Shown in pieces: positions 12,141 through 50,236 of a DNA stretch of 64,000 nucleotides. Both the position numbers and the translations under genes were made by a program. The DNA is from an uncultured Collinsella sp. (GTDB lineage Bacteria; Actinomycetota; Coriobacteriia; Coriobacteriales; Coriobacteriaceae). Position 1 is the stretch's first letter, and every line of letters starts with the position of its first letter. The stretch lies in contig CALJYM010000033.1 of NCBI GenBank assembly GCA_937984005.1, positions 2,288-66,287 of the forward strand. Reading direction: 5' to 3'. The notes under the pieces are model-generated. The model saw nothing but the letters and a program-made list of their open reading frames with translations, was not told the origin of the DNA and made no database searches.

Positions 12141-12232
12141 GCTTTCCACTTGCTTCCCAACTTTCCACTTAACTTTCCAGCTTTCCACCTTAAGTGGTAA
12201 GTTACGTGGAAAGCTGGAAAGAAGTTGGGAGA
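12141..12232. repeat. Palindromic CTTTCC/GGAAAG-rich element, copy A, downstream of the AlbA_2 gene
   Basis: The left arm has 4-5 CTTTCC(A) units including ctttccagctttccac; the right arm is its inverted complement gtggaaagctggaaag; the outer arms are tcccaactt/aagttggga. Confidence 0.7.
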
Positions 12233-12256
12233 CCGAAGCATGGGCGACGGACAGCC

Positions 12257-13726: not shown

Positions 13727-13740
13727 GCCGAACCTCCCAA

Positions 13741-13840
13741 CTTTCCAACTTTCCACCTAACTTACCAGCTTTCCACTTAACTTTCCAGCTTTCCACCTTG
13801 AGTGGTAAGTTAAGTGGAAAGCTGGAAAGTTGGTGGAGAG
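13741..13840. repeat. Palindromic CTTTCC/GGAAAG-rich element, copy B, directly upstream of the AlbA_2 gene and in the same orientation as copy A
   Basis: The 70-bp core aactttccacttaactttccagctttccacctt[g/a]agtggtaagtta[a/c]gtggaaagctggaaag is near-identical to copy A. Confidence 0.7.
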
Positions 13841-13869
13841 CTGGGGCAGCAGTAGGCCAAGCGAACAAG

Positions 13870-13900
13870 AAAAAGGGCGGCAACCGGGTGGTTGCCGCCC
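13870..13900 (-). terminator. Rho-independent terminator of the giant surface-protein gene (GGGCGGCAACC-loop-GGTTGCCGCCC, followed by a T-tract on the minus strand)
   Basis: Perfect 11-bp GC stem; on the minus strand it is followed by TTTTTCTTGTT and lies 10 bp after the stop at 13910. Confidence 0.8.
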
Positions 13901-13909
13901 CTCGCGTAG

Positions 13910-16900: not shown

Positions 16901-19900
16901 GTTGGACCTTTCGCTAAACGTGGTGTTGGATACCTTTGTGTTGGTAACGTCGATGACGACGGATCCGCTGTTACTCGCGTTATTCGCGCCCAGCAGACCG
17001 CCGCTCCAGTTACCCTTAATCGTAGCGTTCTCGATCGCGATGTTGTTGCAGGCTATATTCACATTGCTGAAGAAGTAGCCGATAAGCCCGCCCGAGCATT
17101 TGCCGGTGCCGGCGATGCTGACATTCTTGACACTGCAGTCGTCGAACCAGTACTTGTTGGGGCTACCGCTACTCGTAACCTCACCAATCAGGCCGCCCGC
17201 ATTGTAGATGCTATTGTTCGTTCCGGCCTTATCGCCGATGACGGCGTTCTCGGTGCCGTTTCCGCCATCAATGCGCACGTTGCTCATAGAAATAACGCCG
17301 CCACGGGCGCGTCCGACCACGCCGCCGGCGCCCATATGGTCATCGGAGTTCGACCCGGTGGCTAGCACGTTTACCCCAGAGATGACCGCCGTGCACGACG
17401 ACTGGGCCGCTGTGGTGGTGCCGATGTTGGTGTTGACCGAGATATCGCTTCTTTCGACATAGCCGAGCACGCCGCCCACGTAGGGCACTGTCCCTGTGGC
17501 AGTTATGGTCGAGTTTTTGCCAACGGTCCTTTCGCTCACCCCTGTGCCTGCGGTTGTCCACACACCGCACGCCGAGGCGACCGTACCCACATAGCCACCG
17601 ACATTCTTCTCGCCCGTGACGTTAAGGCCAGTGTATGAGCAGTCATAGAGATACGCGGGGCCCCACCCGTCCCCGAACTCGACCATATAGGTTCTGTCTT
17701 CGCTCGTAGTTCGTCTGGCGCGGCCCGAGCTGCCAAGAAGCCCTCCTACGCTCTTTGCGCCCGACACGGTGCAGTTCTTCATCTGCACGTTGCGGTAGAT
17801 GCCGCACGTGCCGTCGTCGTAGTTGGCCGTTGCACCCGCCAAAAGGCCGGCACCGGTAAGGTCGTTCGGCGCCTCTCCTGGTTTGGCTTCGCCGTTGGTG
17901 TCGATATAGGTGAGCGCTACGTTGCAGTTGCTAAAGGTGAGGTCTTTGACCTGCGCGCCGTCGTTCGCGGTGACGCTCTGCCCCACATTGGTGGAGGTGA
18001 ACATCACGGTGCTGAATAGACCACCCACGCCCGAGACCTTATAGTCGTCGTCGGCGTATTCGACGACGCCGTAGACGGTGCCTTCGGTACCCACCGTGAT
18101 GGTGGCGCCGTTACCGTCGATCGTGGCTACGTGCGGCGTAATACGGTCGCGGTCGGTGCCCGGCTGGTTCGAATTGCAGGCATTGGAATAGTAGCGGCCG
18201 TTTAGGCCCACGTACCCCGTGCCGTAGTCGGTCATATCGTAGGTGTCGCCCTGCTTGAACTCCAAGCTCATGCCGATCGATTTCGACGCGCACACATAGC
18301 CCGTTTGGTAGTCGGCAGCGTAGGACGCCACCAGGTAGGGCGAATTTACATCGTCATCATGGTCGAGCGGGCCGTGCCACCCCTGCTTGCCGGGGGCCTT
18401 CTGGTCGTCGTTTTTGGCGATTTCGAAATCGCCAGCAGCACTCTCAGGCTTGCCCACATTTGCGTAGTTAGCATTCCGTACCTTGCCATATTCCTTGTTG
18501 CCAAACAGGTAGCCGCATATCGCCGGGTCTTGCGAATCGCTGCCCCAGTAAGCCTTGGAACCGCGGAACACGCCATTATTGGAGTAGTTGGTATGTGCCG
18601 CGCCAGCACCCGCACCCGAGCTGATGATGGCCGAGAGCACCAAAAGGCCCTGGGCGTTTTTCACCATGGTCACAGGAGCCTCGGCGTTAGTGCCGAGGTA
18701 CTTGTTGTCGGTGCCCGTGGTGGTGACACAGGGGGTTCCTTTTTTTGTGAGCTCGTTAATCTGGTAGTTAGCGTTACCGTTTTCAACCTTACAGCCCTCG
18801 CTAAAGGCATAGCCATCAATCACGCGACCGACGTAGGGATTGTTGTAGAGATCAAAGTTGCCCTTTCCCAGACCACGAGATTTGTCACCAGTTCCAGCAC
18901 GCCAGGAAGATTTTCCGCTTTTGTCCATATTGCGGAAAATCACGCCGCCACCCGCAATGGCACCGACGTAGCCACCAATGGGAACAAGATGCGGCTTGTC
19001 GCCACCGCCCGTGACGGTAAATCCCGTTGTAGGGTTTTCGGCCGTCGTCCCATTAACGACCACGCCATCGATAATGTTATCGCCACCAAGGATGCAGCCG
19101 ACAACGCCACCGAAAAACGCCGTCGGAACGCCGTCGGCATCCTTGGCAGAATAAGTAATAGTCGCCGACGCGTTCACATAGCGAATATTCAGATCGCGCA
19201 CCACGCTGCCGTAACTATAGGGAATAAGGCCGCGAAGCGAACCCTCGTTATTCTCTATCTTGATGGTTGCGTTTTTATTATCACTGCCAAAGTTGCCAAC
19301 GATGACGCCCCTAAACGGGTTGGCCCTATTTCCAAAACCGCCAAACGATGCGCCGTCGAGAGTAATCGTATTGCCCTCAGTAGGCTCGATGCTGTAATAC
19401 GCGCTCTGCATATAGCGGTGCATGGTTTCGTCGCTCAGCGTCTGCGGGGAATTGGTCGACGCGTCTCCGGTCTTCTTCTCCCATTTATTATCGGTACCGT
19501 TCGCCTGCTTGTAGACGTACGTAACCTCATTGTCGGTCGAGTGATCGCTGCTGCGGCGAGTGCAGAGCCTACCCTGGTCGGCAACAATGGTGACCTCCCA
19601 GCCGTCAAGCGCCGTCATGTTATTAATGTAGTTGGCAATGGCATTCATCTCCGCCGCGTTTGTGACGGAATAAGGATCGCCGTAGGTACCACATCCCATT
19701 ACCAGCTTTGGAATGCGCTGGTTGACTTTAATTTCGTGATACTGGACGCCATCCTCGGCGGCTTTTCCCTTGTAAACATAAGGAAGGTAGTCACCGAACC
19801 AAGGCCTGACGTCACCGTCCTTCTTACCATCAACCGTCACATAGCCGCTCACGGCACCATACGTCGCTTCGTCGTAATACCAAAGCTGCTTGCCCGGGTA

Positions 19901-22900
19901 CTCCGTACTCCCATCAATCTCGGATCCGTAGGTCACCTTGCCCGCATCGCCATCGGCCTTAGTAAAGGTGTAGTCCGCAGAGCCCGTGCTCGTGCTTCCG
20001 TAGCCAAAACTCTCCAGCAGGCTCGCATGGGTGAAGATCGTATTGTTCTCTTGGCTGGGCAAGCTGATTTGCTCAAACTTCGCCGTCACCTGATCGGCCT
20101 CACTGCCTACACCAAGCTTTCCGAACAGCGACGTAGCCGCCTTGGTGCCACTCGTGTACCCAGTAGTCTTGATATTCTTCGCGTTCAGGCTCACGTACTT
20201 CTGCATCTCGTTGATGAGCAGAGGCATATAGGCGTTAGCGTCCGTGGCGCTGTTGGCGCCGTCGACAATCAGATTGTTGAGTGTAAGATCATCAATTGAG
20301 ATCTTTCTAATCTTGGTGCCATTGCCGTCGCTGGACCCATACACGTAGCGGCACACGAGCGCGCCCGATGAGCTTCCGCCCGCGCCAATAGCGTCAGTAG
20401 AGCTCTTTCCGTCATTGATAACGGACCCAACGGTACCACCCAAAGTGACGTTGCTTACTGTGAGATCGCCGTCTGCCACCGTTTGAAAAAGACCGCAGTG
20501 CATGTTCTCGTGCTGGGTGGCATCGGAGTTTAGCTTGTTGCCATTCTGCTCGGCCTTGATCTTGGAGTAGTAGAAGGTGATGGCCGCATTATTAACCGTC
20601 ACCTCTCCGATCGGTTGAGTGGGATAGTAGCTGTAGCCGGCCAAATCGATTGTGCCCGTTATGGTTATGGAATCATCGAGCCCTGTCGTACCATCGGGAA
20701 CGATTGTCGAACGAATACCGGCGGGAGCATAGCAGAAAGCAGACCATAAGAGCAGCTTGTCCGCTGTATCGATTTGACTGCCACTAAAGCCGCCTTCACA
20801 ATTCTTAGAGGCTATGTCGAGGTTGTAGAAGTAGCGGGTATTGCCGTTCGTATTCTGGCTTCGACCGAAAGACGAGCGATTATGGTAGCTGTTGTCTTTT
20901 GTGGAATCGCCGTCCATGTCCAGCTTGTTTTTCTGTGTGTGTAGCGAAACGACCGTGTTCCAGTCGGCGTCCATGAGCTTGCTGCCGTTGTTTGGTTTTA
21001 CACCGCTGCCAACCCATTCATCGAAGGACGTTACGCCCGACGCAACGATGGCCCCCTCGCCGGTGGGCACCCTATAGGCGGTATCCCAATAAACCCTGTC
21101 CTCCAAGTACAGGCCTAGGTAGCTCTCGACGCCATATGTCGTCTTATCATCCACCTTGCAGCCGCGGCAAACTAGAACGCCGAGCGTCTGAGCGGCGCCT
21201 GCATTAATCTTTGTGCCCGAGAGATCGATGGCGTAGTTGTTGATAATCCAGTGACCGCTGGCTGCGTATACAAGGCCGCCAAGCTCCTTGGAATCATCCA
21301 CAGTCGCGATTATAGAAGCGTTGGTCGTTTTCAAAGCATAGGAGTTTTCACTCTTGTTAATGTTGTCATCTCCGATAGTTACGACCGCGTTGCCCCAGCT
21401 ATAACCCAAGAGACCGCCCACGCCATTGAGCTTATCGCCGTTCTTTCCGACTCCCATCTTGAACGAGTTGAACGAAAGGCCCGTAATGTTAACGTCCTTT
21501 TTGGCCGAGTTGGCTATTGCCCCATCAGCCCCATAGGTGCTCTGTGCGATGCAGCCGATAAGACCGCCGACCTGGGCAATCTTGCCGCTGGTGCAATTGC
21601 CGGTTTCGATTGATCCGGCGACTTCGAGGCCCGCAACATTGAATGACGAGCCATAATCGCCCACATAACCAATGGCGCCGCCAATGCGACTATTGCCGTT
21701 AAGCGTTTTAGTTGCAGCGATGGTCGCTTGAGCCCTGCTGTTATCCTTAAACGCAACCGTAGAAGCCGCCGACACGCTGCCCGCAATACCACCAATGTTC
21801 ACTTCGTTGCCGAACGTATCATCACACGCGATATTCGTTTTGCACGTTACGCCCGACAATGGCAGGTTGCCGACGATGGTACCTGCAAGCGACCCGGCAT
21901 CGATAGCCGAACCGTTATCGAACTTCATGGAACCAGCGATTGTGACGTTGGAGATGGTTGCGCCGTTGACGGCCGCGAACAAGCCCAAGCGGCCGTGGCG
22001 GTAGATTTTGCCGTTGCCGTTGCTCGTGTCATTGCCGTCGAGCACAGCTTCACCACGCTTGCCGTACGGCTCGCCGACGGCAAGGTTGATTGTGCCGTTG
22101 CCATTTGTGCCGCCGCCGTTCAACGTTCCCGAGAAAACTTGCGAGCCGTCTGCACGATCCTGCGTGAAACCCGTCAGGCCCGTGCCCTTGAGATCAATAG
22201 TGCCGTTCACCGTAATGGTCGAGGACTGCAAGATGTTCGGGTTGTTTTCAGAAACGCCCTCGACCATGGAGTAGTAGCCGTTGGTTTGCCAGGTGATTGC
22301 AAGTTTGGCGAAATCCTCAACAGAGGTTAGGGTGTAGGCACCGTTAGCTGCCGTCAGCGAATCCGGCAAGGTCAACTTATGAGTGTCCACATCAAGCTTA
22401 ATGAAGTCGCCGCCCAGACGAATAACTTCGCCGTAGGTCGCGATGTCGTCCGTCTTCGAGGCAGTATTGCTACGTTTGAAGGTCCAGCCCGCTGCACCCT
22501 TGTCAGCGTCAGAGCCATCGCCGACAGCAAAAATCAGCGCGTTGTGGTTCTCGTATACGAGCTGGCCCGTCGTGCTGTTTTCGGCAAAACTTGCGCCCGA
22601 CAGATCCGTGATGCCGCTGAATTTGATTACAGCATTCCACGCGGAGCCTGCAATTCCCGCGGCACGGTTGCTTTGCGCCTTACCGATAGGATTGTCGCTT
22701 GTAAGTTTGAAATCTCGCACGTCAAGGACATTGCGCGCGTCGACAACGCCCACGGCACCACCGAACTTTCCGGCGTCCGTTCGCGCCGAAGCATCTCCCT
22801 TGCACGCAACCGTCACGCCGTCGAGCACAACGGCGACAGGCTGCGAATTGGAGTCCGCGCTATCGCCAACATAGCCAACAACACCGCCCGTATCGGACAG

Positions 22901-24586
22901 CTTGCCCGCAAGTTCAAACTCAATTGAGCACGTTTTCTTATCCGCATCCTTTTGGACCACAAAGGCGCGCAGCGACTCATCGACGCCTTTTGCCGTCGCA
23001 AACACCTTGCCGACAAGGCCGCCGTAGCTGCCGTTGAAGCTAACTTCTTCCGGTAAGGTGAACTTGCTCTTATACGTTCCGCCTTGCACCACGATGTCGC
23101 CATTAGAAATATCGGCCACACCAAAAAGGGCGCCGGCGCGTTGCGATGCACCAAGCGTCACAAGCTTGCCCAGGTCGAACATATTGGGCTTAACGATAAA
23201 TCCTTGCGCAAAGCTCACGTCGCCGATGACGCCACCGGAGCAAGCGCTGTCTTTATCGCCGACGTTGCACGCCGGCTTAACCGTTACGCCATCAGCGATG
23301 TTGAGCGTGAGGTTGGTGGCCTTACCGATAAGACCGCCCGCCGCGTTTTTACCTGCGACGCTCAGCGCCGAGACATCGATGCCAGTTGGTAGGGCGACGG
23401 TGGCACCCTCCCGCGCCTCGCCGATAAGACCCCCCGCGTTGGCATCAGCGGCTGTCGCGTTGATAGTGGGGGTACCGTCGAGTTTGTCCGGCAGGGCGAG
23501 GCCCGCAAGCGTAAGCGATGCTCCTTCGGCAAGGGTGTTCACAAGCAAGCCCATGTTGCCTGTGCTCGATTGCATATCGATCGCCAGGGGGCTGTTCGCG
23601 CTTGTCACGTAGGTTGCGTTAAGCGTGAGCGCGCCCGTGACCTCGCCCACAAGTGGCGAGGCGAGCTTGCAGATGTCCTTTTCGGTATCGCTCTTGGGCG
23701 TGCCCACGGTTACGGTGGCAGCAAGCGTCTTGTCCGCGCCCGTGACCTTTGCGGCCACGATGGGCTGGGCATCGGTACCCTTCCAGGTGAGCTTTACGGT
23801 GCTGTTGGCGTCGCTGAGCTCGATGTTGTTGAAGAGCGTCTTGTTGACGGTCAGGGTCCTGTCGCCGAGGTTGAGCGCGCCTTTGAAAGGGTAGGCATCG
23901 CTGCCGAAGCCCTGGAACGTGAGGCTACCCAGGCCGTCCACGATCTCCGCGCCGCACACGTCGAAGTCGATGCCGGTCGAGCCACCTTTGGAGATGTTCG
24001 CGTTCTGGTAGATGGCGGGATCGGTGTTGGAGATGGCGATAAGGTCGGCGTTGGACTCAAAGGTAATGGCCGTGACGGCGCCCAAGTCGTCAGTGATGAC
24101 ATTGCCGTCACCCAACGCGTGCCTGAGATCCTCGACAGTAGCGATGGTGGGGGCGGTGTTTGCCTGATCAGCAGCATCCGCGTCCGCGTCATCCGCTTGT
24201 TCTCCGTCAGCAGCACCCTCATCGGCAGCCGCATCGTCTTGGGACGCGTCGCCCTCCGTTGGGGTATCGCCGTTAGTGGTTCCATCGGTCGTGGAGTCCT
24301 GTGATTCGCCAGCGTTGGTAGAACCGTCGCCGCCCTCGGTAGCGCCAGCGTCGGCGCCCGGAGTCGTTGCGACATCATCAGATGTAGCCTGGTCAGCATC
24401 TTGCAGCGCGGTGGCCACAGCATCCTGTACGGAGCGCGCCGTGTTGCCCGCGGCGCGCGCGGCGGAGACGGATGCATCCATGACGGCGTCGAGCTCTTGC
24501 GCGAACACCTCCGTGGAGGGCGCAAGCGCCTGGAAAATCATGATCGCAGTCAGGCATGCGGTTGTTATGCGCTTTGCCGTTCTCAT
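13910..24586 (-). CDS. Giant (3558 aa) secreted surface protein: signal peptide, acidic Asp/Thr/Ala-rich spacer, then dozens of GLUG-type (GG[LIV][ILV]G) beta-helix-like repeats; no LPXTG at the C-terminus
   Basis: Single uninterrupted ORF. The N-terminus MRTAKRITTACLTAIMIFQALAPSTEVFA is a signal peptide. Motifs recurring throughout include AGGLIGEA, GGLIGKAT, GGVIGDV, GGLVGKV, GGVVGYV and GGLIGEVTS. The C-terminus ...ARINTGGIRHETKTN has no sortase motif. Confidence 0.85.
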   Translation of the reverse strand: MRTAKRITTACLTAIMIFQALAPSTEVFAQELDAVMDASVSAARAAGNTARSVQDAVATALQDADQATSDDVATTPGADAGATEGGDGSTNAGESQDSTTDGTTNGDTPTEGDASQDDAAADEGAADGEQADDADADAADQANTAPTIATVEDLRHALGDGNVITDDLGAVTAITFESNADLIAISNTDPAIYQNANISKGGSTGIDFDVCGAEIVDGLGSLTFQGFGSDAYPFKGALNLGDRTLTVNKTLFNNIELSDANSTVKLTWKGTDAQPIVAAKVTGADKTLAATVTVGTPKSDTEKDICKLASPLVGEVTGALTLNATYVTSANSPLAIDMQSSTGNMGLLVNTLAEGASLTLAGLALPDKLDGTPTINATAADANAGGLIGEAREGATVALPTGIDVSALSVAGKNAAGGLIGKATNLTLNIADGVTVKPACNVGDKDSACSGGVIGDVSFAQGFIVKPNMFDLGKLVTLGASQRAGALFGVADISNGDIVVQGGTYKSKFTLPEEVSFNGSYGGLVGKVFATAKGVDESLRAFVVQKDADKKTCSIEFELAGKLSDTGGVVGYVGDSADSNSQPVAVVLDGVTVACKGDASARTDAGKFGGAVGVVDARNVLDVRDFKLTSDNPIGKAQSNRAAGIAGSAWNAVIKFSGITDLSGASFAENSTTGQLVYENHNALIFAVGDGSDADKGAAGWTFKRSNTASKTDDIATYGEVIRLGGDFIKLDVDTHKLTLPDSLTAANGAYTLTSVEDFAKLAITWQTNGYYSMVEGVSENNPNILQSSTITVNGTIDLKGTGLTGFTQDRADGSQVFSGTLNGGGTNGNGTINLAVGEPYGKRGEAVLDGNDTSNGNGKIYRHGRLGLFAAVNGATISNVTIAGSMKFDNGSAIDAGSLAGTIVGNLPLSGVTCKTNIACDDTFGNEVNIGGIAGSVSAASTVAFKDNSRAQATIAATKTLNGNSRIGGAIGYVGDYGSSFNVAGLEVAGSIETGNCTSGKIAQVGGLIGCIAQSTYGADGAIANSAKKDVNITGLSFNSFKMGVGKNGDKLNGVGGLLGYSWGNAVVTIGDDNINKSENSYALKTTNASIIATVDDSKELGGLVYAASGHWIINNYAIDLSGTKINAGAAQTLGVLVCRGCKVDDKTTYGVESYLGLYLEDRVYWDTAYRVPTGEGAIVASGVTSFDEWVGSGVKPNNGSKLMDADWNTVVSLHTQKNKLDMDGDSTKDNSYHNRSSFGRSQNTNGNTRYFYNLDIASKNCEGGFSGSQIDTADKLLLWSAFCYAPAGIRSTIVPDGTTGLDDSITITGTIDLAGYSYYPTQPIGEVTVNNAAITFYYSKIKAEQNGNKLNSDATQHENMHCGLFQTVADGDLTVSNVTLGGTVGSVINDGKSSTDAIGAGGSSSGALVCRYVYGSSDGNGTKIRKISIDDLTLNNLIVDGANSATDANAYMPLLINEMQKYVSLNAKNIKTTGYTSGTKAATSLFGKLGVGSEADQVTAKFEQISLPSQENNTIFTHASLLESFGYGSTSTGSADYTFTKADGDAGKVTYGSEIDGSTEYPGKQLWYYDEATYGAVSGYVTVDGKKDGDVRPWFGDYLPYVYKGKAAEDGVQYHEIKVNQRIPKLVMGCGTYGDPYSVTNAAEMNAIANYINNMTALDGWEVTIVADQGRLCTRRSSDHSTDNEVTYVYKQANGTDNKWEKKTGDASTNSPQTLSDETMHRYMQSAYYSIEPTEGNTITLDGASFGGFGNRANPFRGVIVGNFGSDNKNATIKIENNEGSLRGLIPYSYGSVVRDLNIRYVNASATITYSAKDADGVPTAFFGGVVGCILGGDNIIDGVVVNGTTAENPTTGFTVTGGGDKPHLVPIGGYVGAIAGGGVIFRNMDKSGKSSWRAGTGDKSRGLGKGNFDLYNNPYVGRVIDGYAFSEGCKVENGNANYQINELTKKGTPCVTTTGTDNKYLGTNAEAPVTMVKNAQGLLVLSAIISSGAGAGAAHTNYSNNGVFRGSKAYWGSDSQDPAICGYLFGNKEYGKVRNANYANVGKPESAAGDFEIAKNDDQKAPGKQGWHGPLDHDDDVNSPYLVASYAADYQTGYVCASKSIGMSLEFKQGDTYDMTDYGTGYVGLNGRYYSNACNSNQPGTDRDRITPHVATIDGNGATITVGTEGTVYGVVEYADDDYKVSGVGGLFSTVMFTSTNVGQSVTANDGAQVKDLTFSNCNVALTYIDTNGEAKPGEAPNDLTGAGLLAGATANYDDGTCGIYRNVQMKNCTVSGAKSVGGLLGSSGRARRTTSEDRTYMVEFGDGWGPAYLYDCSYTGLNVTGEKNVGGYVGTVASACGVWTTAGTGVSERTVGKNSTITATGTVPYVGGVLGYVERSDISVNTNIGTTTAAQSSCTAVISGVNVLATGSNSDDHMGAGGVVGRARGGVISMSNVRIDGGNGTENAVIGDKAGTNNSIYNAGGLIGEVTSSGSPNKYWFDDCSVKNVSIAGTGKCSGGLIGYFFSNVNIACNNIAIENATIKGNWSGGLLGANNASNSGSVVIDVTNTKVSNTTFSERSNGGIMGDGRGQFHLLNVLMDSNSYNAGKTQGVLLGEVDTGDGKYSLSAAGVEVKPGSGKTTSDLPPMVYTTNTNTAAVNEKTYIAFGDYNGTAAAPNENKTLYGAGDTATTATSPYVTTRPVSTLAVRASDGDTTDRYLFGDGAAIDTATTIQSQAGARVPGRYTYTNIAGINDAGAYQNTSTYSADSSRSTYNANNITSGKKAKTDFPVLVIPGNDTTTVESYLNIVTNGGFSDARRLNGSTAHVTATAEVFSLADNGTFVKDVAASQAPTLKVLNNGTSSMAFRASTDWDNEQGRFTLLTVTFSEAGQSYRVQVPIIVKRMLEIDFTATYSEGANFKAADYATKYDKHVLVSSGDTMTGYLTWTYGSARGKPVDYGWNTLLEAGGSMGPLNKSITFGATLPEGTQLTLVDTANNSREYHYTVGTGGATSVKLTEFVDAGNKAYYTEPWLSEIVGVKADEAKEDKDGAWVKLADDEVKDKSQAELAKMAGAKVDGAYYRARTSSDATGTFYTLSVDKEEPKSENFYLVVRTPAGSAGVNGYTATTVDTSLNEHINYLLRGKKAADGKAAEDGHQNTPSTYSVASNYTHSLVDNKRNLVDNRDSINRMELKEATYSLSMNVSDTVTFDSSQQYTSSDALYYQLDSSLVTYHDGVIAGSVGYPTGTQGTYEFYVKVGDNYYTWGGSGWNLAGTKETPVVSGLSWTANGGDMSLVLADAEGNPIDMSGLREIAKNHVNAFTVTMRAALTMTEPACQAGIVASQNSGTDRYTKPNYRAYLSTHADTLSTSSNSAYNDGGAGYYRMDVGSSTIALEASKKSQLGISIDDLKSADGEIALVGTYDLSKLTGAEAKIDAASTVTYTLILEQRQDNGGYAPVGDISNYITVLGSDYLGTGAASADGNSYVFTDTKTNGAFLTRDGNSLAFKHAFRVKVNTNVEGENQTYANYRLVLTANIMTGNVVDDTPVNVSNLDGYSHSDYVTYTLARINTGGIRHETKTN

Positions 24587-24650
24587 CTGGTCCTACCTCG
24601 TTCTATCTCATGCCCCGTGCGGGGTCTCAAAATCACAGATTGCGGTTGGC

Positions 24651-25628
24651 CTACGCAGCCCTGCACGTAACACCGATGTCATCCAAGCTGCCGGGCGCGG
24701 TATCCGTCGAACGGTAAAAGGTAATAATCTCCGACCCGGGATCCATGGTGAACGTAACCGACCTTCCATCAAAGGTCGCGTCGGAATGATTCGTCGCCAA
24801 AAATGGGTCAAGCTCAACCTTGTCGCCCCATGTAAGCTTGATTTTTGTTGGCGCGCCCGTAACGGTCGCGCGATAGTTGTAAGCGTCGAAAGCGTTGATA
24901 TCCGAGTTCTTGTCGACCCACTCGCCCGAAACGCCCGAAGCCGTTACCTCTGCACGCTCGGAAGGCGCAATCTTGGCGGCGAGCCATTTAAGATTGGTGC
25001 CGGGGCTATTGGAGCCGACCTGGGCCTTAACGGTGAAGGATGCTTTGTTGAGGTCCGCCTTGGAAAATGTAACCTTATAGGTATACATGGTTGCCCTGTT
25101 GGCAGGGAAGGAAAGGTCGACCGTGCCGCCCGCCGTCAGCATGGGCGAACCGCTTATGCTCCAAGCTTTCGTCGTTCCCGTCGCCTTCACGCTCAGCGTC
25201 GCGTTAACGTCCTTGTCGTTGACCTTGTTCTTGTCGCCCAGCAGATGGTTGTAAATGCGAAAGGTAAAAGAGCAGTTTTCCCCACTCGTGTCGGCGATGA
25301 CGCTTCGGACGGCAATACCCTCGTCATTCAGCGTCTCATTCGTGTAGCCCGTAAGCATGTCCGAGGCAAACAGCGCCTGTGACGTGCCCGAGACAGCGAC
25401 CGACTTAAGGAAGTCGCCCGCCAAAAAGGCCGTGTAAGTAAGGTGGGTACCCGCCACAATCGCGACGGCGCATAGCAGCACCGCAACCGCCCACAGGCGC
25501 TTGCGCATTTTGGAAACAGGGGCCGCCGACTCTACGCAGCAAGGCTCTGCCTTAGAATCATCCACCTGCGCAAAGTGCTTGCCAACAGGCCTCGCGATTT
25601 CATTTTGCTCTTTCTTGTCTTTTCGCAT
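24651..25628 (-). CDS. Bitopic membrane protein (N-in, single TM, ~260-aa extracytoplasmic beta-rich domain); third of three paralogous-architecture genes upstream of the giant protein
   Basis: Start chosen at MRKDKKEQNEIARP (25628); the Arg-rich 85-aa extension of ORF 24651..25883 is not coding-like. The TM segment is LWAVAVLLCAVAIVAGTHLTYTAFL. The post-TM segment AFLAGDF...ALFASDMLTG weakly resembles the TasA/camelysin N-terminal motif (AAFNDIKSKDATFASGTLDL). Confidence 0.6.
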   Translation of the reverse strand: MRKDKKEQNEIARPVGKHFAQVDDSKAEPCCVESAAPVSKMRKRLWAVAVLLCAVAIVAGTHLTYTAFLAGDFLKSVAVSGTSQALFASDMLTGYTNETLNDEGIAVRSVIADTSGENCSFTFRIYNHLLGDKNKVNDKDVNATLSVKATGTTKAWSISGSPMLTAGGTVDLSFPANRATMYTYKVTFSKADLNKASFTVKAQVGSNSPGTNLKWLAAKIAPSERAEVTASGVSGEWVDKNSDINAFDAYNYRATVTGAPTKIKLTWGDKVELDPFLATNHSDATFDGRSVTFTMDPGSEIITFYRSTDTAPGSLDDIGVTCRAA

Positions 25629-25651
25629 CTGGCGCCCCTCCCTTCTTGTTA

Positions 25652-26452
25652 TTAGTTGCCACTCGTGCCGCGAGCAATTAGATAAACCATGTCGGTCTCT
25701 TTGACGTTGGAGACCGTCTTTCCGTTTACGGTCACAACGCCCGGATTCCATGTGCACTCGATGATGAAGTTCGTGGCGGCGTTGGCTGTTTTGCCATTCC
25801 AGCCATCGAGCCCACTCCCTGCGAACTTGTGGTACCGATACAGCGGACGGGCGTTTTTCTGGACATTCACGTACGAGCCGCACGTCGGGTCGTTTGCCTC
25901 AAGCTCTTTAGCCAACGCACTTGTCCCGTCCGCGGAGTTGATAAAAGCAAACTCAATCGGGGTGCTGCTCTTCTTGCTCCATGAGTAGGTGCGGTTGAGC
26001 CCGTCGAGGCCGACCACAGTGCCGTTTTTATCGTTCGGATTATTGACCGTCACGTGATACACGTTGATTGTCAGCCCCGTGATATTCGTTGTGTTGGCAA
26101 TCTGCAGCTCAAACGCTTGACCGCCGGCAGCGGGATCGCCATTGTCGCTCTGCACACAAAACGCGCGACGAACGGTCACGGTGCCGTCTATGTTTTTAAC
26201 ATCGCCCCGTGACTCGTCATACGAAATCTCGATGGGCTCGATGCTCGTCTGGTTGGGACCCATGATCTTAAGCTGCGCGGGCGTTTGGATCTTGCCCACC
26301 GTAGACAGACTTTTGCTGCCCACAAACCACGAGAGCGACAAGCCGATGATAAGAGCGATTGCCGCCAGCAATATCAGGACCGCAAGGGCCTGTGCGCGGT
26401 GGTTTTCTATCCAATTGCGGGCATCGCCGAGGCGCGTTTGCATGGTGCTCAT
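25652..26452 (-). CDS. Bitopic membrane protein (20-aa cytoplasmic N-terminus, single TM, ~220-aa extracytoplasmic domain); second of three
   Basis: TM segment ALAVLILLAAIALIIGLSLSWFV, then GSKSLSTVGKIQTPAQLKIMG.... Its start overlaps the stop of the upstream gene by 4 nt (ATGA), indicating translational coupling. Confidence 0.65.
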   Translation of the reverse strand: MSTMQTRLGDARNWIENHRAQALAVLILLAAIALIIGLSLSWFVGSKSLSTVGKIQTPAQLKIMGPNQTSIEPIEISYDESRGDVKNIDGTVTVRRAFCVQSDNGDPAAGGQAFELQIANTTNITGLTINVYHVTVNNPNDKNGTVVGLDGLNRTYSWSKKSSTPIEFAFINSADGTSALAKELEANDPTCGSYVNVQKNARPLYRYHKFAGSGLDGWNGKTANAATNFIIECTWNPGVVTVNGKTVSNVKETDMVYLIARGTSGN

Positions 26453-27486
26453 GAGCTCACGCCCTCCTGAGCGCTAATTCTAAGTTGGATGTATTTGACC
26501 TTATTGCCGATCTGCTCGTCGGCATTGTTGTACAGCGCCGAGCAGATGGCGGTGTCGCCGAAGGATATGTCAGCCGAAACCGCAGGAGCGTTGGCGACAC
26601 TCGTGCCGTTTGCCGCGCCATAGAAGTAGTTCGCTTTATGCGCGTTCATATCTGCCTGCAGAGCGCCGTAGTCAGACTTTGCGTCGCCCGCCGCCGCAAA
26701 CAGGTTCTTGTAGTAATTCGTGTTGCCGGTAAGGACGAAGTTTTGGAAGTACTCCGGCCACACCCAGTACAGGCTGATGGTGACGGGTTTGTTCGTTGGC
26801 TTGTTCACATCGCCGTTTTCGCAAAATTCGCACTTGCGAATCTCGATCTTGCTATCAACCACGCGGCCCGAGTAATACCCGTTCTGGTCGCAGCTCGTAA
26901 AGAACAGCAAGTGGCCTTTGATCAAGCCAAGGAGCGCCTCCGCCTCGGGCGCCAGCGTTCCCCCGTCCCCAACAACGCCAACAGTGTTCGTGACCTTAAG
27001 CAAGCGCGACAGACTGATCGTGACCCCGTCCAGGTCACTCACCAGCGGCTTCACCGTAAATGTAATCTTGCCGCGAGCACCCGGGTACAGAGAGCCCGCG
27101 GTCTCGTTGTTGAGGTTGGAGCCGAGCGTTACCGTCATGGCGTCGGTCGTATCCAGGCCATCGATGGCATACTTTTCCTCGGGCGTGCGCTCGGAGCGCT
27201 CGTAATAGCCCACGTGCGCGCCGGACTCACCCTCGCCCGCGGCGGTCAGCGTGTACCGATCCGCCTTCGCCCCGATCGTACCCCCCGTGGCGCTCACTCG
27301 GTTATTCGCGGCAAACCAGGCCAGACACGCAAAGATGGCAACGATGGCGGCCAACACAAACAGACCGCTCACCAGGAAATCCTTCCAGAAATCCTTGAGG
27401 GTCCGCACGTGCTCGTCGGCAGCTTGGCGGTACTCGGCCGCCGTCTTGTGCTGCTGGAGCTCGCTATGTCGGTCCATGCCACTCAT
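26449..27486 (-). CDS. Bitopic membrane protein (37-aa cytoplasmic N-terminus, single TM, ~285-aa extracytoplasmic domain); first gene of the operon
   Basis: TM segment FLVSGLFVLAAIVAIFACLAWF, then AANNRVSATGGTIGAKADRYTLTAAG...; a GGAGGG RBS precedes the downstream coupled start. Confidence 0.65.
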   Translation of the reverse strand: MSGMDRHSELQQHKTAAEYRQAADEHVRTLKDFWKDFLVSGLFVLAAIVAIFACLAWFAANNRVSATGGTIGAKADRYTLTAAGEGESGAHVGYYERSERTPEEKYAIDGLDTTDAMTVTLGSNLNNETAGSLYPGARGKITFTVKPLVSDLDGVTISLSRLLKVTNTVGVVGDGGTLAPEAEALLGLIKGHLLFFTSCDQNGYYSGRVVDSKIEIRKCEFCENGDVNKPTNKPVTISLYWVWPEYFQNFVLTGNTNYYKNLFAAAGDAKSDYGALQADMNAHKANYFYGAANGTSVANAPAVSADISFGDTAICSALYNNADEQIGNKVKYIQLRISAQEGVSS

Positions 27487-27665
27487 CGCTTACATTTGCC
27501 CTGCTTGCGGGCGTGCCATCCTTTCCGCTCGGTCGCGTTTATCCGTTGTTCGCAGGTAGAGAATTCAGGCAGAATACAACACCGTACGATAAGGTAAAAG
27601 AATAGCATTGACCTGCGGTTCGCTCCACAACGCAAGCCTTAATGATGTCTTAAAAGTCAAACCCT

Positions 27666-27730
27666 TGGTGCAAGTGGTCAGGTTACTTCGCGCCAACATG
27701 GTGCAAACAAACCTGACCCCCTTGCACCAA
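27666..27730. promoter_or_regulatory. 20-bp inverted repeat (TTGGTGCAAGTGGTCAGGTT ... AACCTGACCCCCTTGCACCAA) with a 24-nt loop in the promoter region of the bitopic/giant-protein operon
   Basis: Arms at 27666-27685 and 27710-27730 are reverse complements (19/20), about 180 bp upstream of the 27486 start. Confidence 0.4.
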
Positions 27731-27769
27731 TCCGTAGCGCCGGGCAGCGGACACACGGCGTGCCGCCCC

Positions 27770-29074
27770 TTAACACCCCAACGCGCGAACGGGTATCACG
27801 TAGATACCGTCCTCGACCTCGCGGGCGTACTCACCCACCCCCACAATCACGGCCATAAACTCCGGTTCGCGTGTGCGTGAACGAGGATTTCCACAGACCT
27901 TCTTGCGAACGCGCTTGAGGCTCTCGACGCCGGCGTTCGCTTTATCTTCACTCACCTTAATCTCAAAGGCGGCCCACCGTCCGTCGGCTAGCTGCACGAT
28001 AGCATCGCACTCAAGACCCGAATCGTCGCGATAATAGCGCACGGGCGTGCTATCCAGCAGGTCGAGCGAACGTGCGTAGACCGAAAGGTCGCGTATGACC
28101 AAATTCTCAAACACCAGACCAAATGTCTGCCAGTCGGCAAGCAGCGCCTGCGAGGACATACCTAGCAAGGCGCAAGCAAGGCTCGGATCTGCCAGATAGC
28201 GCTTGGGCTTGACGGTAAAGCGCCGTTTGTCGCGCGCGGCGGGAACCCAACCGGGAACCTCCTCGAGAATGAACATGCCTTTGAGGGCATCCAGGTACCT
28301 GCGCACCTTGGTCTCATCGGCAAACGCTGCGGGTTCCTCCTCGGCACCGAACATATCCATAAGAATCGTTTTATACGTGGTTGCCTGTCCCAGATTGCGC
28401 GCGATCGATGCGGAGACTCGACGAGCAATATCGGGGTCGAGACCGACCGCCGGGAAGCTGCTCGAAAACGTGGTGTTGAGATATTCGTGGGCGATGAGCT
28501 GGGCGTCAGCCGAAACCATATCGATCGCCTCGGGCCAGCCGCCGCGGCAAGCGGCTTCGACAAGCCCCGGCGTATCGCCATTGCACCGGCAGGGCTCAAA
28601 ACGATGCTCAAACAAGCCCGCCAGGCTCACCTTGCCGTTGGACTCACCTGTCTCGGCAAGCGTCATGGGGTGCATGCGGACGCGGCCGATGCGGCCGGCT
28701 CCACTATGCGCGGGCGCCTCCGCCTTTGAGCCAAACGCAGGCGTGGCGGAACCCGTGAGGATATAGGCGCCGCGCGTACCCCGGGTGCGGTCGACCTCGT
28801 GTCTAACGTAGTCCCAAATCTGGGGAACGCGCTGCCACTCATCGATAATATGCGGACGGTCTCCCAGCAACATCATCGCCGGGTCGGCACGCGCGAGGTC
28901 GAGATTCTCGTCGACATACGAGGCGGACGCCCCGTGCTCGAGCGCGGCCCACGTCTTGCCGCACCACTTGGTGCCCGCAATCTCGACCGCTCCAAAGACA
29001 CGAAGGTAGCGCTCGATTTGCGCATCCACGATACGTGGGATGTATCCGTCCCGATATAGCCTCTCGCCTGCCAT
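27770..29074 (-). CDS. AAA+ ATPase of the AAA_14 / DUF4143 family (orphan ATP-binding protein)
   Basis: Walker A motif GTKWCGKT; the C-terminal region LVFENLVIRDL...RYYRDDSGLECDAIVQLADGRWAAFEIKVSE matches the DUF4143 pattern; 434 aa. Confidence 0.75.
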   Translation of the reverse strand: MAGERLYRDGYIPRIVDAQIERYLRVFGAVEIAGTKWCGKTWAALEHGASASYVDENLDLARADPAMMLLGDRPHIIDEWQRVPQIWDYVRHEVDRTRGTRGAYILTGSATPAFGSKAEAPAHSGAGRIGRVRMHPMTLAETGESNGKVSLAGLFEHRFEPCRCNGDTPGLVEAACRGGWPEAIDMVSADAQLIAHEYLNTTFSSSFPAVGLDPDIARRVSASIARNLGQATTYKTILMDMFGAEEEPAAFADETKVRRYLDALKGMFILEEVPGWVPAARDKRRFTVKPKRYLADPSLACALLGMSSQALLADWQTFGLVFENLVIRDLSVYARSLDLLDSTPVRYYRDDSGLECDAIVQLADGRWAAFEIKVSEDKANAGVESLKRVRKKVCGNPRSRTREPEFMAVIVGVGEYAREVEDGIYVIPVRALGC

Positions 29075-29133
29075 GAGCCACCCCCGCAGATTTCCAGTTC
29101 CTGCTTTCTGATTCTTCTATTCCACTGTAGCAA

Positions 29134-29214
29134 ATTCGGATTTTCGGGTGGTTGCGATTCGGATTTTCGTGTTCATATAATTCGGATTTTCTGGTGCATG
29201 AGATTCGGATTTTC
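29134..29214. promoter_or_regulatory. Four direct iterons ATTCGGATTTTC with an exact 23-bp period, upstream of the AAA_14/DUF4143 gene
   Basis: Copies start at 29134, 29157, 29180 and 29203; each has a 12-bp conserved core plus an 11-bp variable spacer. Confidence 0.7.
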
Positions 29215-29245
29215 TGAACCCGCTGGTCAGAGCACCTCTTATCGA

Positions 29246-29283
29246 CAAAAAGGCGGGGAGCACCGATACGGCACTCCCCGCCC
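29246..29283 (-). terminator. Rho-independent terminator of the enoate-reductase gene (GGCGGGGAG-loop-CTCCCCGCC, with a T-tract on the minus strand)
   Basis: Hairpin 29252-29282; on the minus strand it is followed by TTTTTGTCG, 25 bp after the stop at 29309. Confidence 0.7.
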
Positions 29284-29308
29284 ACTCAATACGCGATAGC
29301 TTTCTCGA

Positions 29309-31345
29309 CTACAGCTCGTTAGCCGCGTGATATGCCGTGCGGATAGCGCTCGCGATGTCGGCGGTTCGCTCGCCCGAGCAGTCGCCCACGCAGGTCACGG
29401 GCACCGTCACGCCGTCCAGGTCAAACGCGTTGGCCTTGGAGCCCACGGCCATCACCACGTAATCGCAGGCGATCTTCACCGGCTCCTCGGCGCCGTCCTC
29501 GGTGGTGCGAATGGCCTCCACGCCCTCATCAGTAATGGCGGTCAGGCGGGTTTTCACGTGCTGCTCAACGTTATGCTCGGCAAAGTCGCTCATAATCAGC
29601 GGCAGAATGGTCTCGGACTCGCCCGCGGCAATCTTATCGAGCATCTCCACGATCGCCACCTCGCAGCCATGCTGCAGCAGGTACTCGGCAGTCTCGGTGC
29701 CCACCAGGCCACCGCCAATAACGGCGACGCGGCCCGTAAGCTCCACCTTGCCGGCCAGCACGTCCCAGCTCGAGACGACCTTGTCCGAATCGGCACCCGG
29801 AACGGGAATGACCACGTCGTGCGCGCCCACGGCCACAATCGCGGCGTCGGCGGCGTTGAGGTCCTCGGCGGTAGCGGCATGGTTGAGCTCGACCTTCACG
29901 CCCAGGCCAGGCAGAATCTTCTCGTAGTACTCGACCGAGCGCATGATCTCGTCCTTGCGCGGAGGCGCAGCCGCCAGCACAATCTGGCCGCCCAGATGAT
30001 CGCTCGCCTCGTAGACGGTCACGTCGTAGCCGCGCTTGGCCGCCACGCGCGCGGCCTCCAGGCCGGCAATACCGCCGCCCACCACGGCGATCTTCTTGTC
30101 GCCCTCGCCCGGCTTGATGGCGATGGTCGCCTCGTCGCCGTTCTCGGCATTGAGCACGCACGAGATGTACTTGCGGTTTTGAATCGCGTCGACACAGCCC
30201 TTATTGCAGTTGAGGCACTCGCGAATGGGCTCGCCCGTGGCGGCCTTCAGCGCAATGTCGGGGTCGCACATGAGCGAGCGGCCATAGGCGACGATGTCGG
30301 CAGAGCCATCCTCCAGGATCTTCTCGCCGGCCTCGACCGAGACCACGCGGCCGACGGTTGCCACCGGCACGGAGACCAGGGCCTTGACGCGCTCGGCCAC
30401 GGGCAGCGTCCAGTTGTAGGGCATGGCGCCCATGGGCGGAATGGTGTCGCCCATGTTGCCGGTGTGATTTGCCTGTGCAACCTGGATCATGTCGATGCCC
30501 GCGCTCTCGAGCAGCTTGGCAAACTCGCAGGCCTCGTCGGGCTGCAGGCCGCCCTTACCGCGCGGCGTGCCGTCGGGGTTCTCCATGATCACGGGGAGCT
30601 TGTACTCCACCATCAGCTGCGGCGCGGCTTCCTTAATGGCAGCGACGACCTCGAGCGCATAGCGAACGCGGTTCTCGAACGAGCCACCGTACTCGTCGGT
30701 GCGCTTGTTGAGGATGGCCGAGCACAGCGAACCCACCAGGCGGTCGCCGTGGACCTCGATGGCGTCGATTCCGGCCTGCTGCGCGCGAGCGGCCGAGGCA
30801 GCGATAGCCTCCTTGATCTGGGTGAGCTGCTCTACGCTCGCCTCGTTCACGAAGTGCTGCATGTCGTGGTGCAGCTTGGCATAGGCCTGTTTGCGGATCT
30901 CGTTGGACTCGGCCATCTTGGCGGCAAAGGTCTCCTCGTCGCCGGCAGCCTTGGCCTCCTGCGCGGCCTTGGCGGCAGCCATGGAACCCATGACCATGCG
31001 GCCGACACCGGGCACGTCGTACTCGGGGTGGAACAGCTGCAGCGCAATCTTGGCGCCGTGCTTGTGGACGGCGTCGGCCAGTGCCTTAAACGTGGGGATC
31101 TGGGCGTCGGTCGCCAGCTTGGGCGTGGGGCTCGCGGTCATGACGGGAGCGACGTCGCCGATGACGATGTAGCTCACGCCGCCACGGGCCAGGCGCTCGT
31201 AAAAAGCCAGGCTGCGCTCGCCAATGGAGCCGTCACGCTCCTCGTAGCCGGTGGTCAGCGGCGGAAACATAATGCGGTTCTTGAGCTCAAGGGGGCCAAC
31301 CGTAATGGGCTGGAGCAGCTTGGATGCAGGTGCGGTCATGGACAT
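29309..31345 (-). CDS. Two-domain flavoenzyme: N-terminal Old Yellow Enzyme-like FMN TIM barrel, CxxCxxxC [4Fe-4S] linker, and C-terminal FAD/NAD(P)-binding pyridine-nucleotide oxidoreductase domain (2-enoate reductase / 2,4-dienoyl-CoA reductase family)
   Basis: OYE motifs QLFHPE and IDAIEVHGDRL, linker ECLNCNKGCVDAIQ, and Rossmann motifs IAVVGGGIAGLEAA and VAVIGGGLVGTETA; 678 aa. Confidence 0.8.
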   Translation of the reverse strand: MSMTAPASKLLQPITVGPLELKNRIMFPPLTTGYEERDGSIGERSLAFYERLARGGVSYIVIGDVAPVMTASPTPKLATDAQIPTFKALADAVHKHGAKIALQLFHPEYDVPGVGRMVMGSMAAAKAAQEAKAAGDEETFAAKMAESNEIRKQAYAKLHHDMQHFVNEASVEQLTQIKEAIAASAARAQQAGIDAIEVHGDRLVGSLCSAILNKRTDEYGGSFENRVRYALEVVAAIKEAAPQLMVEYKLPVIMENPDGTPRGKGGLQPDEACEFAKLLESAGIDMIQVAQANHTGNMGDTIPPMGAMPYNWTLPVAERVKALVSVPVATVGRVVSVEAGEKILEDGSADIVAYGRSLMCDPDIALKAATGEPIRECLNCNKGCVDAIQNRKYISCVLNAENGDEATIAIKPGEGDKKIAVVGGGIAGLEAARVAAKRGYDVTVYEASDHLGGQIVLAAAPPRKDEIMRSVEYYEKILPGLGVKVELNHAATAEDLNAADAAIVAVGAHDVVIPVPGADSDKVVSSWDVLAGKVELTGRVAVIGGGLVGTETAEYLLQHGCEVAIVEMLDKIAAGESETILPLIMSDFAEHNVEQHVKTRLTAITDEGVEAIRTTEDGAEEPVKIACDYVVMAVGSKANAFDLDGVTVPVTCVGDCSGERTADIASAIRTAYHAANEL

Positions 31346-31475
31346 TCCTCTCTTGTAGACGCGGCGGCGATGGTGCCGCGTAGTTGTCTAGAGGATATGG
31401 CATGAGAGCACGGCGGCACAACGAAAATCGGCGAATATCAGGTGACGGCAGGTGGATGGGGTGATCCCTATCGCC

Positions 31476-31864
31476 GGTTTGTCTCAATCTGCAACAGCTA
31501 CTCAGCAAAACCGGGTCTTACTGTTACAGATCGAGATATTCCTCTCTACCCATCCTCAACAATCTAGATCTGTAACAGCTAGGCCCACTTTTGACCCCCA
31601 CCTGTTACAGATCGAGACAAACCAATCTAGCCTGCCGAAAGATCTCGATCTGTAACAGTTACTCGGCAAAATGGGCCCCAGATGTTACGGATTTAGACAA
31701 ACGGGACCCGCCTGCTAGAAAATCTCAATCTGTAACAGCTGCCCGGCAAAATCCGTCCCTCGTGTTACAGATTTAGACAAACGCGGTCCAAACCGCCGGT
31801 ATATCTCGATCTGTAACACCTAGCCGCCCAAATCGGGTCTTGGTGTTACAGATCGAGATCTTTG
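31476..31864. repeat. Tandem array of five ~80-bp units, each an imperfect 67-bp palindrome with 22-bp arms (GGTTTGTCTCGATCTGTAACAG / CTGTTACAGATCGAGACAAACC) around a conserved 23-nt loop, separated by 13-14-bp linkers
   Basis: Reverse-orientation arms start at 31476, 31557, 31637, 31717 and 31798. Forward-orientation arms start at 31521, 31602, 31682, 31762 and 31843. Four of the five loops share ctactcRgcaaaaYSSgggYcYt; one loop is inverted. Confidence 0.8.
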
Positions 31865-31948
31865 ATTGAGAGGCTGAGAATTGAACCGAAGAAACGATCC
31901 CGGGATAACAAAAAAGCTCGCCGGCTAGGCCGACGAGCTGCAAGTTCT

Positions 31949-32024
31949 TGGTCGCGGGGGCAGGATTTGAACCTACGACCTCCGGGTTATGAGCCCGGCG
32001 AGCTACCAGACTGCTCCACCCCGC
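31949..32024 (-). tRNA. tRNA-Met (anticodon CAT), initiator-type (three G-C pairs in the anticodon stem; close to canonical tRNA-fMet)
   Basis: Minus-strand sequence TGCGGGGTGGAGCAGTCTGGTAGCTCGCCGGGCTCATAACCCGGAGGTCGTAGGTTCAAATCCTGCCCCCGCGACCA folds as a cloverleaf with D-stem GAGC/GCTC, anticodon stem CCGGG/CCCGG, T-loop TTCAAAT and an encoded CCA. ORF 31773..32042 is the usual spurious ORF over a tRNA. Confidence 0.85.
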
Positions 32025-32221
32025 AATGTCTGGGCGCTTCATGTGCGCAAGAAAGAATATTACGTGGGAGTTCGGTAAACGGCAAGGAAAAACTCGTAGA
32101 GCATAATTCCTTCATATTTAAACCCCTCAGCCCATATCACTGTAACCGAATCGCAGCCGAGCGCCGTCGACGGCGCGTATACAATGGTGCGCGTCCTTTT
32201 ACACCGACACTGGGAGTAGAC

Positions 32222-33007: not shown

Positions 33008-33190
33008 GTCGAGCACGCCCGATGTCACAGCCCCGCAAACGTTCGCCAAGCCTATTCCTCAAAACCGAAAAATTTTCAATTATGAGGAATAGGACCGAGA
33101 TGCCGCCCTGCAGTCACGCAAAAGCCCTCCCCGGTGCAGGCCGAGGAGGGCTTCGTTGTCATCGTTATCTTTGAGCACGGGCGTCTCGCG

Positions 33191-48680: not shown

Positions 48681-48805
48681 TATACCGGCCGCCCAAACCA
48701 CCACAAAGGTGCCTGTCCCCTTTGCGGTGGTTTTTGGTCGGTTAGCCTTCGAGCTGCGATCGCGTCGAAAATGTTGGTGTAAGGGTGACGCCCTAGCGCC
48801 CGTTT

Positions 48806-50206: not shown

Positions 50207-50236
50207 GGATCGGGCTCTACACCAACTTTCTCGACA

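Follow-up and report, generated by a model that had tools for sequence, protein, structure and literature searches.

The window analyzed in this study is a 64-kb stretch (64,000 nucleotides) of DNA from an uncultured Collinsella sp., and it contains an array of palindromic repeats at 31476-31865. As the original prediction stated, the array lies between an OYE reductase gene and a tRNA-fMet gene. The former is a minus-strand gene at 29309-31345 whose 678-aa product has Oxidored_FMN and Pyr_redox_2 domains by Pfam (OYE / 2,4-dienoyl-CoA-reductase-like). The latter is a minus-strand tRNA-Met (CAT) at 31949-32025, which is initiator-like in that three G-C pairs adjoin the anticodon loop, and which is presumably close to E. 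coli tRNA-fMet. Beyond it a gene for a type III pantothenate kinase (CoaX) starts at 32222. A promoter/terminator scan detected a terminator-like hairpin with a T-run on the minus strand at 31915-31939, directly 3' of tRNA-Met, and this hairpin stands between the tRNA transcript and the array. On the other side, a 130-bp spacer (31346-31475, minus strand) separates the array from the OYE start codon, and the gene-proximal 75 bp of this spacer are almost invariant among eight aligned orthologous loci. The OYE promoter and RBS probably lie within these 75 bp, downstream of the array. Because it is flanked by the tRNA terminator and by the spacer with the putative OYE promoter, the array is probably outside both the tRNA and the OYE transcripts. 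The scan of the array found nothing above shuffles except the tRNA terminator, and an Rfam scan of the region (E≤10) returned the tRNA plus chance miRNA matches and nothing else.

Ten matches to TCTCGATCTGTAACA with up to three mismatches were found at 31482-31858 in strictly alternating orientation (+,-), at a start-to-start distance of 40 or 41 nt. The other 63.6 kb of the 64-kb window contain no match; 0.94 matches would be expected in the window by chance and 0 of 100 shuffles reached ten. The ten alternating arms make up five units of 80/81 bp, and this period, which had been predicted, was recovered along with the inverted arms by repeat search and TRF. Unit 1 (31476-31542) has arms at 31482-31496 (+) and 31522-31536 (-) and a loop center that is A-rich on the plus strand. 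Unit 2 (31556-31623), with arms at 31563-31577 (+) and 31603-31617 (-), has a loop that is inverted compared to the other four, as had been noticed before. The arms of unit 3 (31637-31703) are at 31643-31657 (+) and 31683-31697 (-, three mismatches), those of unit 4 (31717-31783) at 31723-31737 (+) and 31763-31777 (-), and those of unit 5 (31797-31864), both perfect, at 31804-31818 (+) and 31844-31858 (-). The repeat had been described as 22 bp long; its ten alternating copies are confirmed, but the conserved arm is shorter, 15-16 nt (TCTCRATCTGTAACA), and the outer GGTTTG is seen as GTTTG in about four arms. Similarly, the loops are 23 nt long as described (25 nt between the 15-nt cores), and they are about 55-70% alike, with a degenerate consensus in common. 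The linkers are 13-14 bp. A CRISPR array was rejected here as it was in the original prediction, since orientation alternates, both spacer classes carry the family consensus, and no cas gene was found by Pfam among the genes that flank arrays.

On either strand the predicted fold of the whole array region is much more stable than that of shuffled sequences (z -11.4 and -13.0). However, the five stacked hairpins that had been proposed are only one of two equivalent registers, as arm-linker-arm folds as well as arm-loop-arm (-11.4 and -15.1 kcal/mol for arm-linker-arm). As single-stranded DNA, unit 5 forms the strongest hairpin (-22.8 kcal/mol) and the folds of units 1 and 3 do not surpass those of shuffles (z -1.1 and -0.7). 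No T-run follows the array hairpins, either in the scan or on reading of the sequence.

Distribution of the repeat unit

The family was scanned for with the exact pattern ATCTGTAACA-N20-30-TGTTACAGAT, using one genome per species. The hairpin pattern is present in at least 120 contigs among the matches listed. The named organisms among these contigs are all Collinsella, and the rest are unclassified bins and one contig that is probably mis-binned. Among the matches listed, the only named genomes with the family so far are thus those of Collinsella. The listed Collinsella loci contain at least 781 arms, at least 354 units and at least 143 arrays of 1-8 units. The core-to-core length is 55 nt (25-nt loop) in 351 of the 354 units listed, and units are chained head to tail through a GC-rich linker of 24-26 nt between cores, such that arms recur every 40 bp in alternating orientation. 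Nearly all arrays read +-+-..., which identifies arm-loop-arm as the unit. When the arrays were clustered by homology of their flanks, at least 25 clusters were obtained, with only six singletons, and this suggests that the Collinsella pan-genome has roughly 25-35 conserved intergenic sites. In the 899,693-bp C. aerofaciens record NZ_OY725717.1 the family occurs at 16 places, yet a 200-kb stretch of the same record that was examined in full has no arrays, and the distribution is therefore patchy. A search of the Phage collection gave no match to the family. IMG/VR gave 13 matches, among which L121, L124, L126 and L128-L131 are chromosomal flanks of prophages and were matched to chromosomal loci, and L122, L125 and L127 are chance matches.

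All listed arrays are intergenic and are found in equal measure between convergent (39), divergent (38) and co-directional (42) genes, at a median distance of 61 bp from a gene 3' end and 151 bp from a 5' end. The array is often located just past a terminator-like hairpin. Arrays are regionally clustered, and at no fewer than four loci they lie on both sides of one or two genes. The genes beside arrays have unrelated functions; among them are DXS, a Ser/Thr kinase, LacI/GntR/DeoR regulators, PTS, GH1, ABC transporters, MntH, a GDSL lipase and zinc-ribbon proteins. The gene families that recur near arrays are ordinary ones (oxidoreductases, ABC, LacI, GntR, GH1, PTS), and a tRNA gene is within 350 bp of an array at 3 of about 28 representative loci. 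The original prediction had linked the array to integration at a tRNA hotspot and to the OYE gene, and had set the locus apart from generic repeats scattered like REP/BIME elements. Both links are lost and the emphasis on this locus fails, because the unit is dispersed across Collinsella in just that manner, at 25 or more loci and beside unrelated genes. The tRNA-Met is an incidental neighbor and no part of the repeat element, and the OYE gene is a neighbor only.

A second palindromic family was also observed. It consists of ACCACCACAAAGG, then GGACAGGCA or the complement TGCCTGTCC, then CCTTTGTGGTGGT, is preceded by an A-run and followed by a T-run, and resembles a bidirectional terminator. 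Copies are present in the window at 48697-48731, in L010, L014, L022, L039, L053, L071, L080, L082, L111 and L120, and in L143-L145. In 10 or more of 24 locus clusters a copy is found on the outside of an array, at a distance of 10-35 bp, but copies also occur without arrays, with eight in 200 kb of C. aerofaciens. At one locus the loop of this palindrome is inverted between L082/window and L111. Close to the window copy is an IS256-like element (48752-50247) with imperfect terminal inverted repeats at 48752-48781 and 50218-50247, which carries a 426-aa Transposase_mut ORF (48879-50159). It sits exactly where L053, L082 and L111 have a three-unit array (window ~48.74 kb). Homology to these three ends at window 48733-48742 and does not resume in the window, and the far side is rearranged.

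Gain and loss of units at orthologous loci

Eight orthologous copies of the window locus, with flanks that are 90-93% identical, could be aligned cleanly. In this eight-genome alignment, exact indels of 80/81 bp result in three, four or five units. Unit 2 is lacking in four genomes (L063, L083, L095 and L102), and unit 3 was found in the window alone among the eight aligned orthologous loci. A unit-sized deletion likewise occurs at a second family locus. Across orthologous loci, array position is fixed and unit number is variable, and the unit indels are attributed to recombination or slippage between arms. Variation in copy number among strains had been anticipated, together with an association with tRNA positions; the former is seen (three to five units at the locus) but the latter is not.

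The more distant Collinsella species (CoaX 73-87% identical) have a tRNA-Met/CoaX neighborhood with other genes and no array. A clean pair of filled and empty sites was sought through these CoaX orthologues and none was found, as synteny upstream of CoaX changes. In L135, L139 and L141 (CoaX 83-87% identical) the OYE gene and array are replaced by a segment with an AT-rich stretch, an IS3-type HTH_Tnp_1 ORF and VWA/FctA pilin-like genes, which in L135 starts at the 3' side of the same tRNA-Met. This replaced content suggests that the site upstream of CoaX is a variable region in its own right.

The surroundings of the locus differ between strains in other ways as well. An insertion of about 1.3 kb is found just 3' of the pantothenate kinase gene in L008 (1344-2661) and L095 (3709-5024), opposite window ~33050-33094. 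About 17 kb of the window (12117-29305) are absent in L026, L063, L083, L102 and L118, where the OYE gene joins directly to window ~12117. This island, which is not bounded by the array, contains a 3,558-aa ORF (13910-24586, minus strand) with no Pfam match at E≤1e-5, a Schlafen/AlbA_2 and HATPase_c_4 gene (12257-13756) and an AAA_14/DUF4143 gene (27770-29074). Its low-GC intergenic DNA has short tandem repeats at 12139-12193, 13739-13798 and 29134-29214. Related 20-bp units (…CTTTCCA…) flank the Schlafen-like gene on both sides, and the DNA from the DUF4143 gene to the OYE 3' end has 3.5 copies of a 23-bp unit.

Conservation of arms, loops and linkers

The consensus of the family unit is WWtR TCTCRATCTGTAACA nn TAG ..S-rich.. 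AAA ..S-rich.. TCTA nn TGTTACAGATYGAGA YaWW. In the matrix of all arms (WWtR TCTCRATCTGTAACA nn TAG), core positions are 93-100% conserved, with the exception of positions 3-4, which are degenerate (C 82%, R). The outer GGTTTG of the window arms is reduced to WWtR family-wide, and the only conserved motif near the arm is (C)TAG on the loop side. A single arm does not form a hairpin and contains only a 9-nt mini-palindrome, CTGTnACAG. The loops are far more diverse, with 308 distinct sequences among the 354 units. When oriented, the loop is asymmetric (TAG..G..AAA..G.TCTA).

Comparison of non-orthologous units showed 92% identity in the arms, 49.5% in the loops (best orientation) and 35% in the outer 13 nt (linkers), and neighboring units within one array are hardly more alike than these. 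Between orthologous units the divergence is 3.9% in arms, 9.1% in loops and 17.7% in linkers, and the arm figures are biased low because arms were detected by their similarity to the consensus (≤3 mismatches). The near-invariance of the arms amid drifting loops and linkers shows that the arrays are old and that the arms are held by selection.

The pattern of arm changes bears on what is being selected. Arm position 4 (R) is mismatched with its partner (G.T or A.C) in 44% of units. At polymorphic arm positions Watson-Crick pairs are exactly as frequent as the column frequencies predict when multiplied, and pairing within the loop is below expectation. Between orthologues, 286 arm changes are one-sided, compared with 11 compensatory and 17 non-compensatory double changes. 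Among 75 non-orthologous units, 73.4% of cells are paired compared with a shuffled mean of 76.8%, and the covariation score is 0.116 compared with a shuffled mean of 0.154. With pairing at chance, one-sided changes predominant and covariation below the shuffled value, the constraint is on sequence rather than on pairing.

Both loop orientations are common in the family (181:129) and are mixed within arrays. Relative to transcription, neither orientation is preferred (51:35, p=0.1). In unit 2, loop inversion had been taken as a sign of flipping by recombination within the palindrome. However, orthologous unit pairs have the same loop orientation in 277 cases and a flipped one in 0, so that the inverted loop is an old feature without active flipping. 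An invertible switch of the inverton or shufflon type was rejected on the same count.

Discussion

The window array is one locus of an interspersed palindromic repeat family similar to REP, BIME and REPIN elements, and in the preferred interpretation of these data its arms would be duplex sites for a conserved trans-acting protein. Judged from conservation patterns, this interpretation has about an even chance of being correct. The arms are conserved without covariation, change on one side at a time and show no strand bias, and for these reasons they are read as a duplex that may be recognized by protein and not as a selected RNA or single-stranded DNA fold. A conserved Collinsella protein would then recognize each arm. 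Since the spacing is strictly 25 nt and there is a central A-tract, one protein complex might occupy an inverted pair of arms on bent DNA. If the arrays act at all, they would be generic intergenic platforms for protein binding or architecture, perhaps comparable to the gyrase- or IHF-binding BIMEs of E. coli, and would be neither regulators of OYE nor integration sites linked to tRNA. A protein-binding scaffold was among the options that the original prediction offered, and it is the one retained. A more specific version is doubtful: here the arms would be operator-like sites for a Collinsella-specific DNA-binding protein, with the roughly 25-35 arrays forming a chromosomal system maintained by the host, either as insulators (topological or transcriptional) or as platforms that organize the nucleoid, or would be substrates of a non-Y1 'RAYT analogue' such as a DUF559-like 364-aa protein encoded beside some arrays. 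The arm was also compared with known binding sites. GATCTGTAACA occurs within a predicted CRP site of M. tuberculosis, but the arm does not fit TGTGA-N6-TCACA and the likeness was treated as coincidence. Likeness to the parS, cre and IHF consensus sequences, compared by eye, is too weak to be of use.

No description of the family was found in Rfam or the searchable literature, and on that basis it has not been described previously. Its closest counterparts are the REP and BIME elements. E. coli REPs are imperfect palindromes of about 35 nt that carry a GTAG-type 5' motif, and their cognate RAYT is RayT/YafM. Like REP/BIME elements, and BIME-2 in particular, the family is multi-copy, dispersed, non-coding and extragenic, commonly located after genes, and composed of short conserved motifs that alternate with two alternating classes of spacer in clusters whose length varies among strains. 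However, its 15-19-nt arm is not a self-palindromic repeat with a GTAG-like 5' tetranucleotide and, beyond the mini-palindrome, has no hairpin of its own. The 1.34 Mb of Collinsella DNA searched yielded no RAYT, and there are tens of arrays per genome compared to hundreds of REPs. Pseudomonas REPINs are recently amplified, near-identical populations tied to a vertically inherited RAYT gene that they flank. The family shares with them two inverted repeats around a less conserved spacer, occurring singly or in tandem clusters, but differs in that its loops are about 50% identical between copies, its positions are kept in synteny from species to species, and no RAYT turned up in the DNA searched. 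MIRUs of mycobacteria are also tandem intergenic units of 50-100 bp in an actinobacterium with unit numbers that vary at fixed loci, but they are direct repeats without an arm-loop-arm palindrome.

A selfish, non-autonomous mobile element of the REPIN or MITE type, in which the arms are sites for a transposase (RAYT-type Y1 or other) and arrays arise by local insertion and duplication, would also account for several of these features, and we regard it as an unlikely explanation. Clustered doublets of inverted arms are the architecture of REPINs and BIMEs, and both loop orientations within one array would be expected from independent insertions. Regional clustering, together with the loci (four or more) where one or two genes are enclosed by arrays, points the same way. 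One of these flanked genes encodes a 364-aa protein with a weak match to DUF559 (PD-(D/E)XK-like, E=0.024), an arrangement that resembles RAYT genes flanked by REPs, and a paralogue of this protein is also encoded about 0.9 kb from an array. The protein has no other match in Pfam, NCBIfam or the PDB, and its AF2 model (pLDDT 43.5) is too poor for a fold search. Among the matches listed its only relatives are close Collinsella orthologues.

The search for a transposase argues against this explanation. Tblastn with RayT, IS200 TnpA and IS608 TnpA queries found no Y1 (HUH) or RAYT gene at E≤0.1 in 1.34 Mb of array-centered Collinsella DNA; the RayT and IS200 TnpA queries were each validated as 100% identical to annotated genes, and the IS608 TnpA query was unvalidated. 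The flanks of 13 solitary units have no direct repeat that could be a target-site duplication, just 4 nt by which the palindrome is extended. A longer element with arms at its ends was not seen. Array positions are syntenic across species with unit number alone varying, and the near-random similarity of loops and linkers between copies indicates that there was no recent burst. The family does resemble MITE-like elements (Neisseria Correia, enterobacterial ERIC, pneumococcal RUP/BOX) in being small, non-coding, intergenic and hairpin-capable, with arms in the place of terminal inverted repeats. However, there is neither a target-site duplication nor a parent IS with the same ends, 80-bp unit indels take the place of presence/absence polymorphism, and the strict tandem chaining at 80/81 bp is atypical of MITEs.

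The arrays could instead act at the RNA level, as transcribed hairpins that serve as 3'-end stabilizers, RNase III sites, read-through barriers or insulators, or as an ncRNA or attenuator for the downstream gene. This is unlikely on the present data, even though the window array folds so well on both strands and arrays tend to lie near gene 3' ends. Many arrays, including that of the window, lie between a separate terminator-like hairpin and the promoter region that comes next, and the array hairpins lack a T-run. As single-stranded DNA, two window units out of five do not exceed shuffles in stability, and the mismatches at arm position 4 and the lack of covariation argue against a selected fold. 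The attenuator or ncRNA of the original prediction, and a structured or cis-regulatory RNA more generally, was rejected because Rfam has no match for the region other than the tRNA, covariation is below the shuffled value, one-sided arm changes outnumber compensatory ones by 286 to 11, and loops have no strand preference. It should be noted that conserved arms with perfect complementarity will fold into hairpins in every transcript, with or without selection for pairing. At the locus of the 364-aa gene (L013 and orthologues) just 4-43 bp separate the end of the array from the start codon that follows, and the array must therefore be within or at the very start of the transcript, or else carry the promoter, so effects at the RNA level are possible there.

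Finally, an explanation specific to this locus, in which the array is an attC-like or att array at a tRNA-fMet hotspot or an operator array for the OYE gene, is very improbable. In its favor, the 3' side of this tRNA-Met is variable across Collinsella species, a few arrays (3 of about 28 loci) are close to a tRNA, and on the far side of the OYE gene there is a 17-kb island that is strain-specific. However, the island is not bounded by the array and the unit occurs at 24 or more other loci without tRNA or reductase. The attC-like array of the original prediction also fails in its details. Like attC sites, the units are imperfect palindromes of about 60-70 bp in series, with conserved ends and a variable inner part. 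However, the linkers of 13-14 bp leave no room for gene cassettes, the window flanks are OYE, tRNA and CoaX with no adjacent IntI, and the consensus arms are perfectly complementary and have no conserved bulges or extrahelical bases. The R''/L''-L'/R' boxes are absent, as GTTRRRY/RYYYAAC cores are unmatched on reading of the sequence (GTTACAG departs from GTTRRRY at two positions) and there is no strand asymmetry.

Prophages in IMG/VR were considered as evidence for an att function and rejected, since the prophage junction of the L039-type locus is about 75 bp away from the array and past a separate hairpin, and the array is therefore not the att site. The prophages in L121, L124, L126, L128 and L130 (KilA-N, RecT and SPFH genes) are integrated at ...TACTGCCACA| in this position. 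A 375-aa ORF beside the junction has a C-terminus that reads by eye as tyrosine-recombinase-like and has no Pfam match.

The data presented in this study carry no particular message on the OYE reductase or on the initiator tRNA of this organism. What they point to is a candidate trans-acting factor, which is implied by 15-bp arms that are about 92% identical amid nearly random surroundings. Collinsella is a common and very diverse genus of the human gut, and arrays with fixed positions and variable unit numbers could serve for typing of strains. They probably also break short-read assemblies, as many contigs end in or beside them. If the arms are operator-like sites for a Collinsella-specific protein or substrates of a non-Y1 'RAYT analogue', the family and that protein would be a repeat-protein partnership of a type not described so far for the Actinomycetota.
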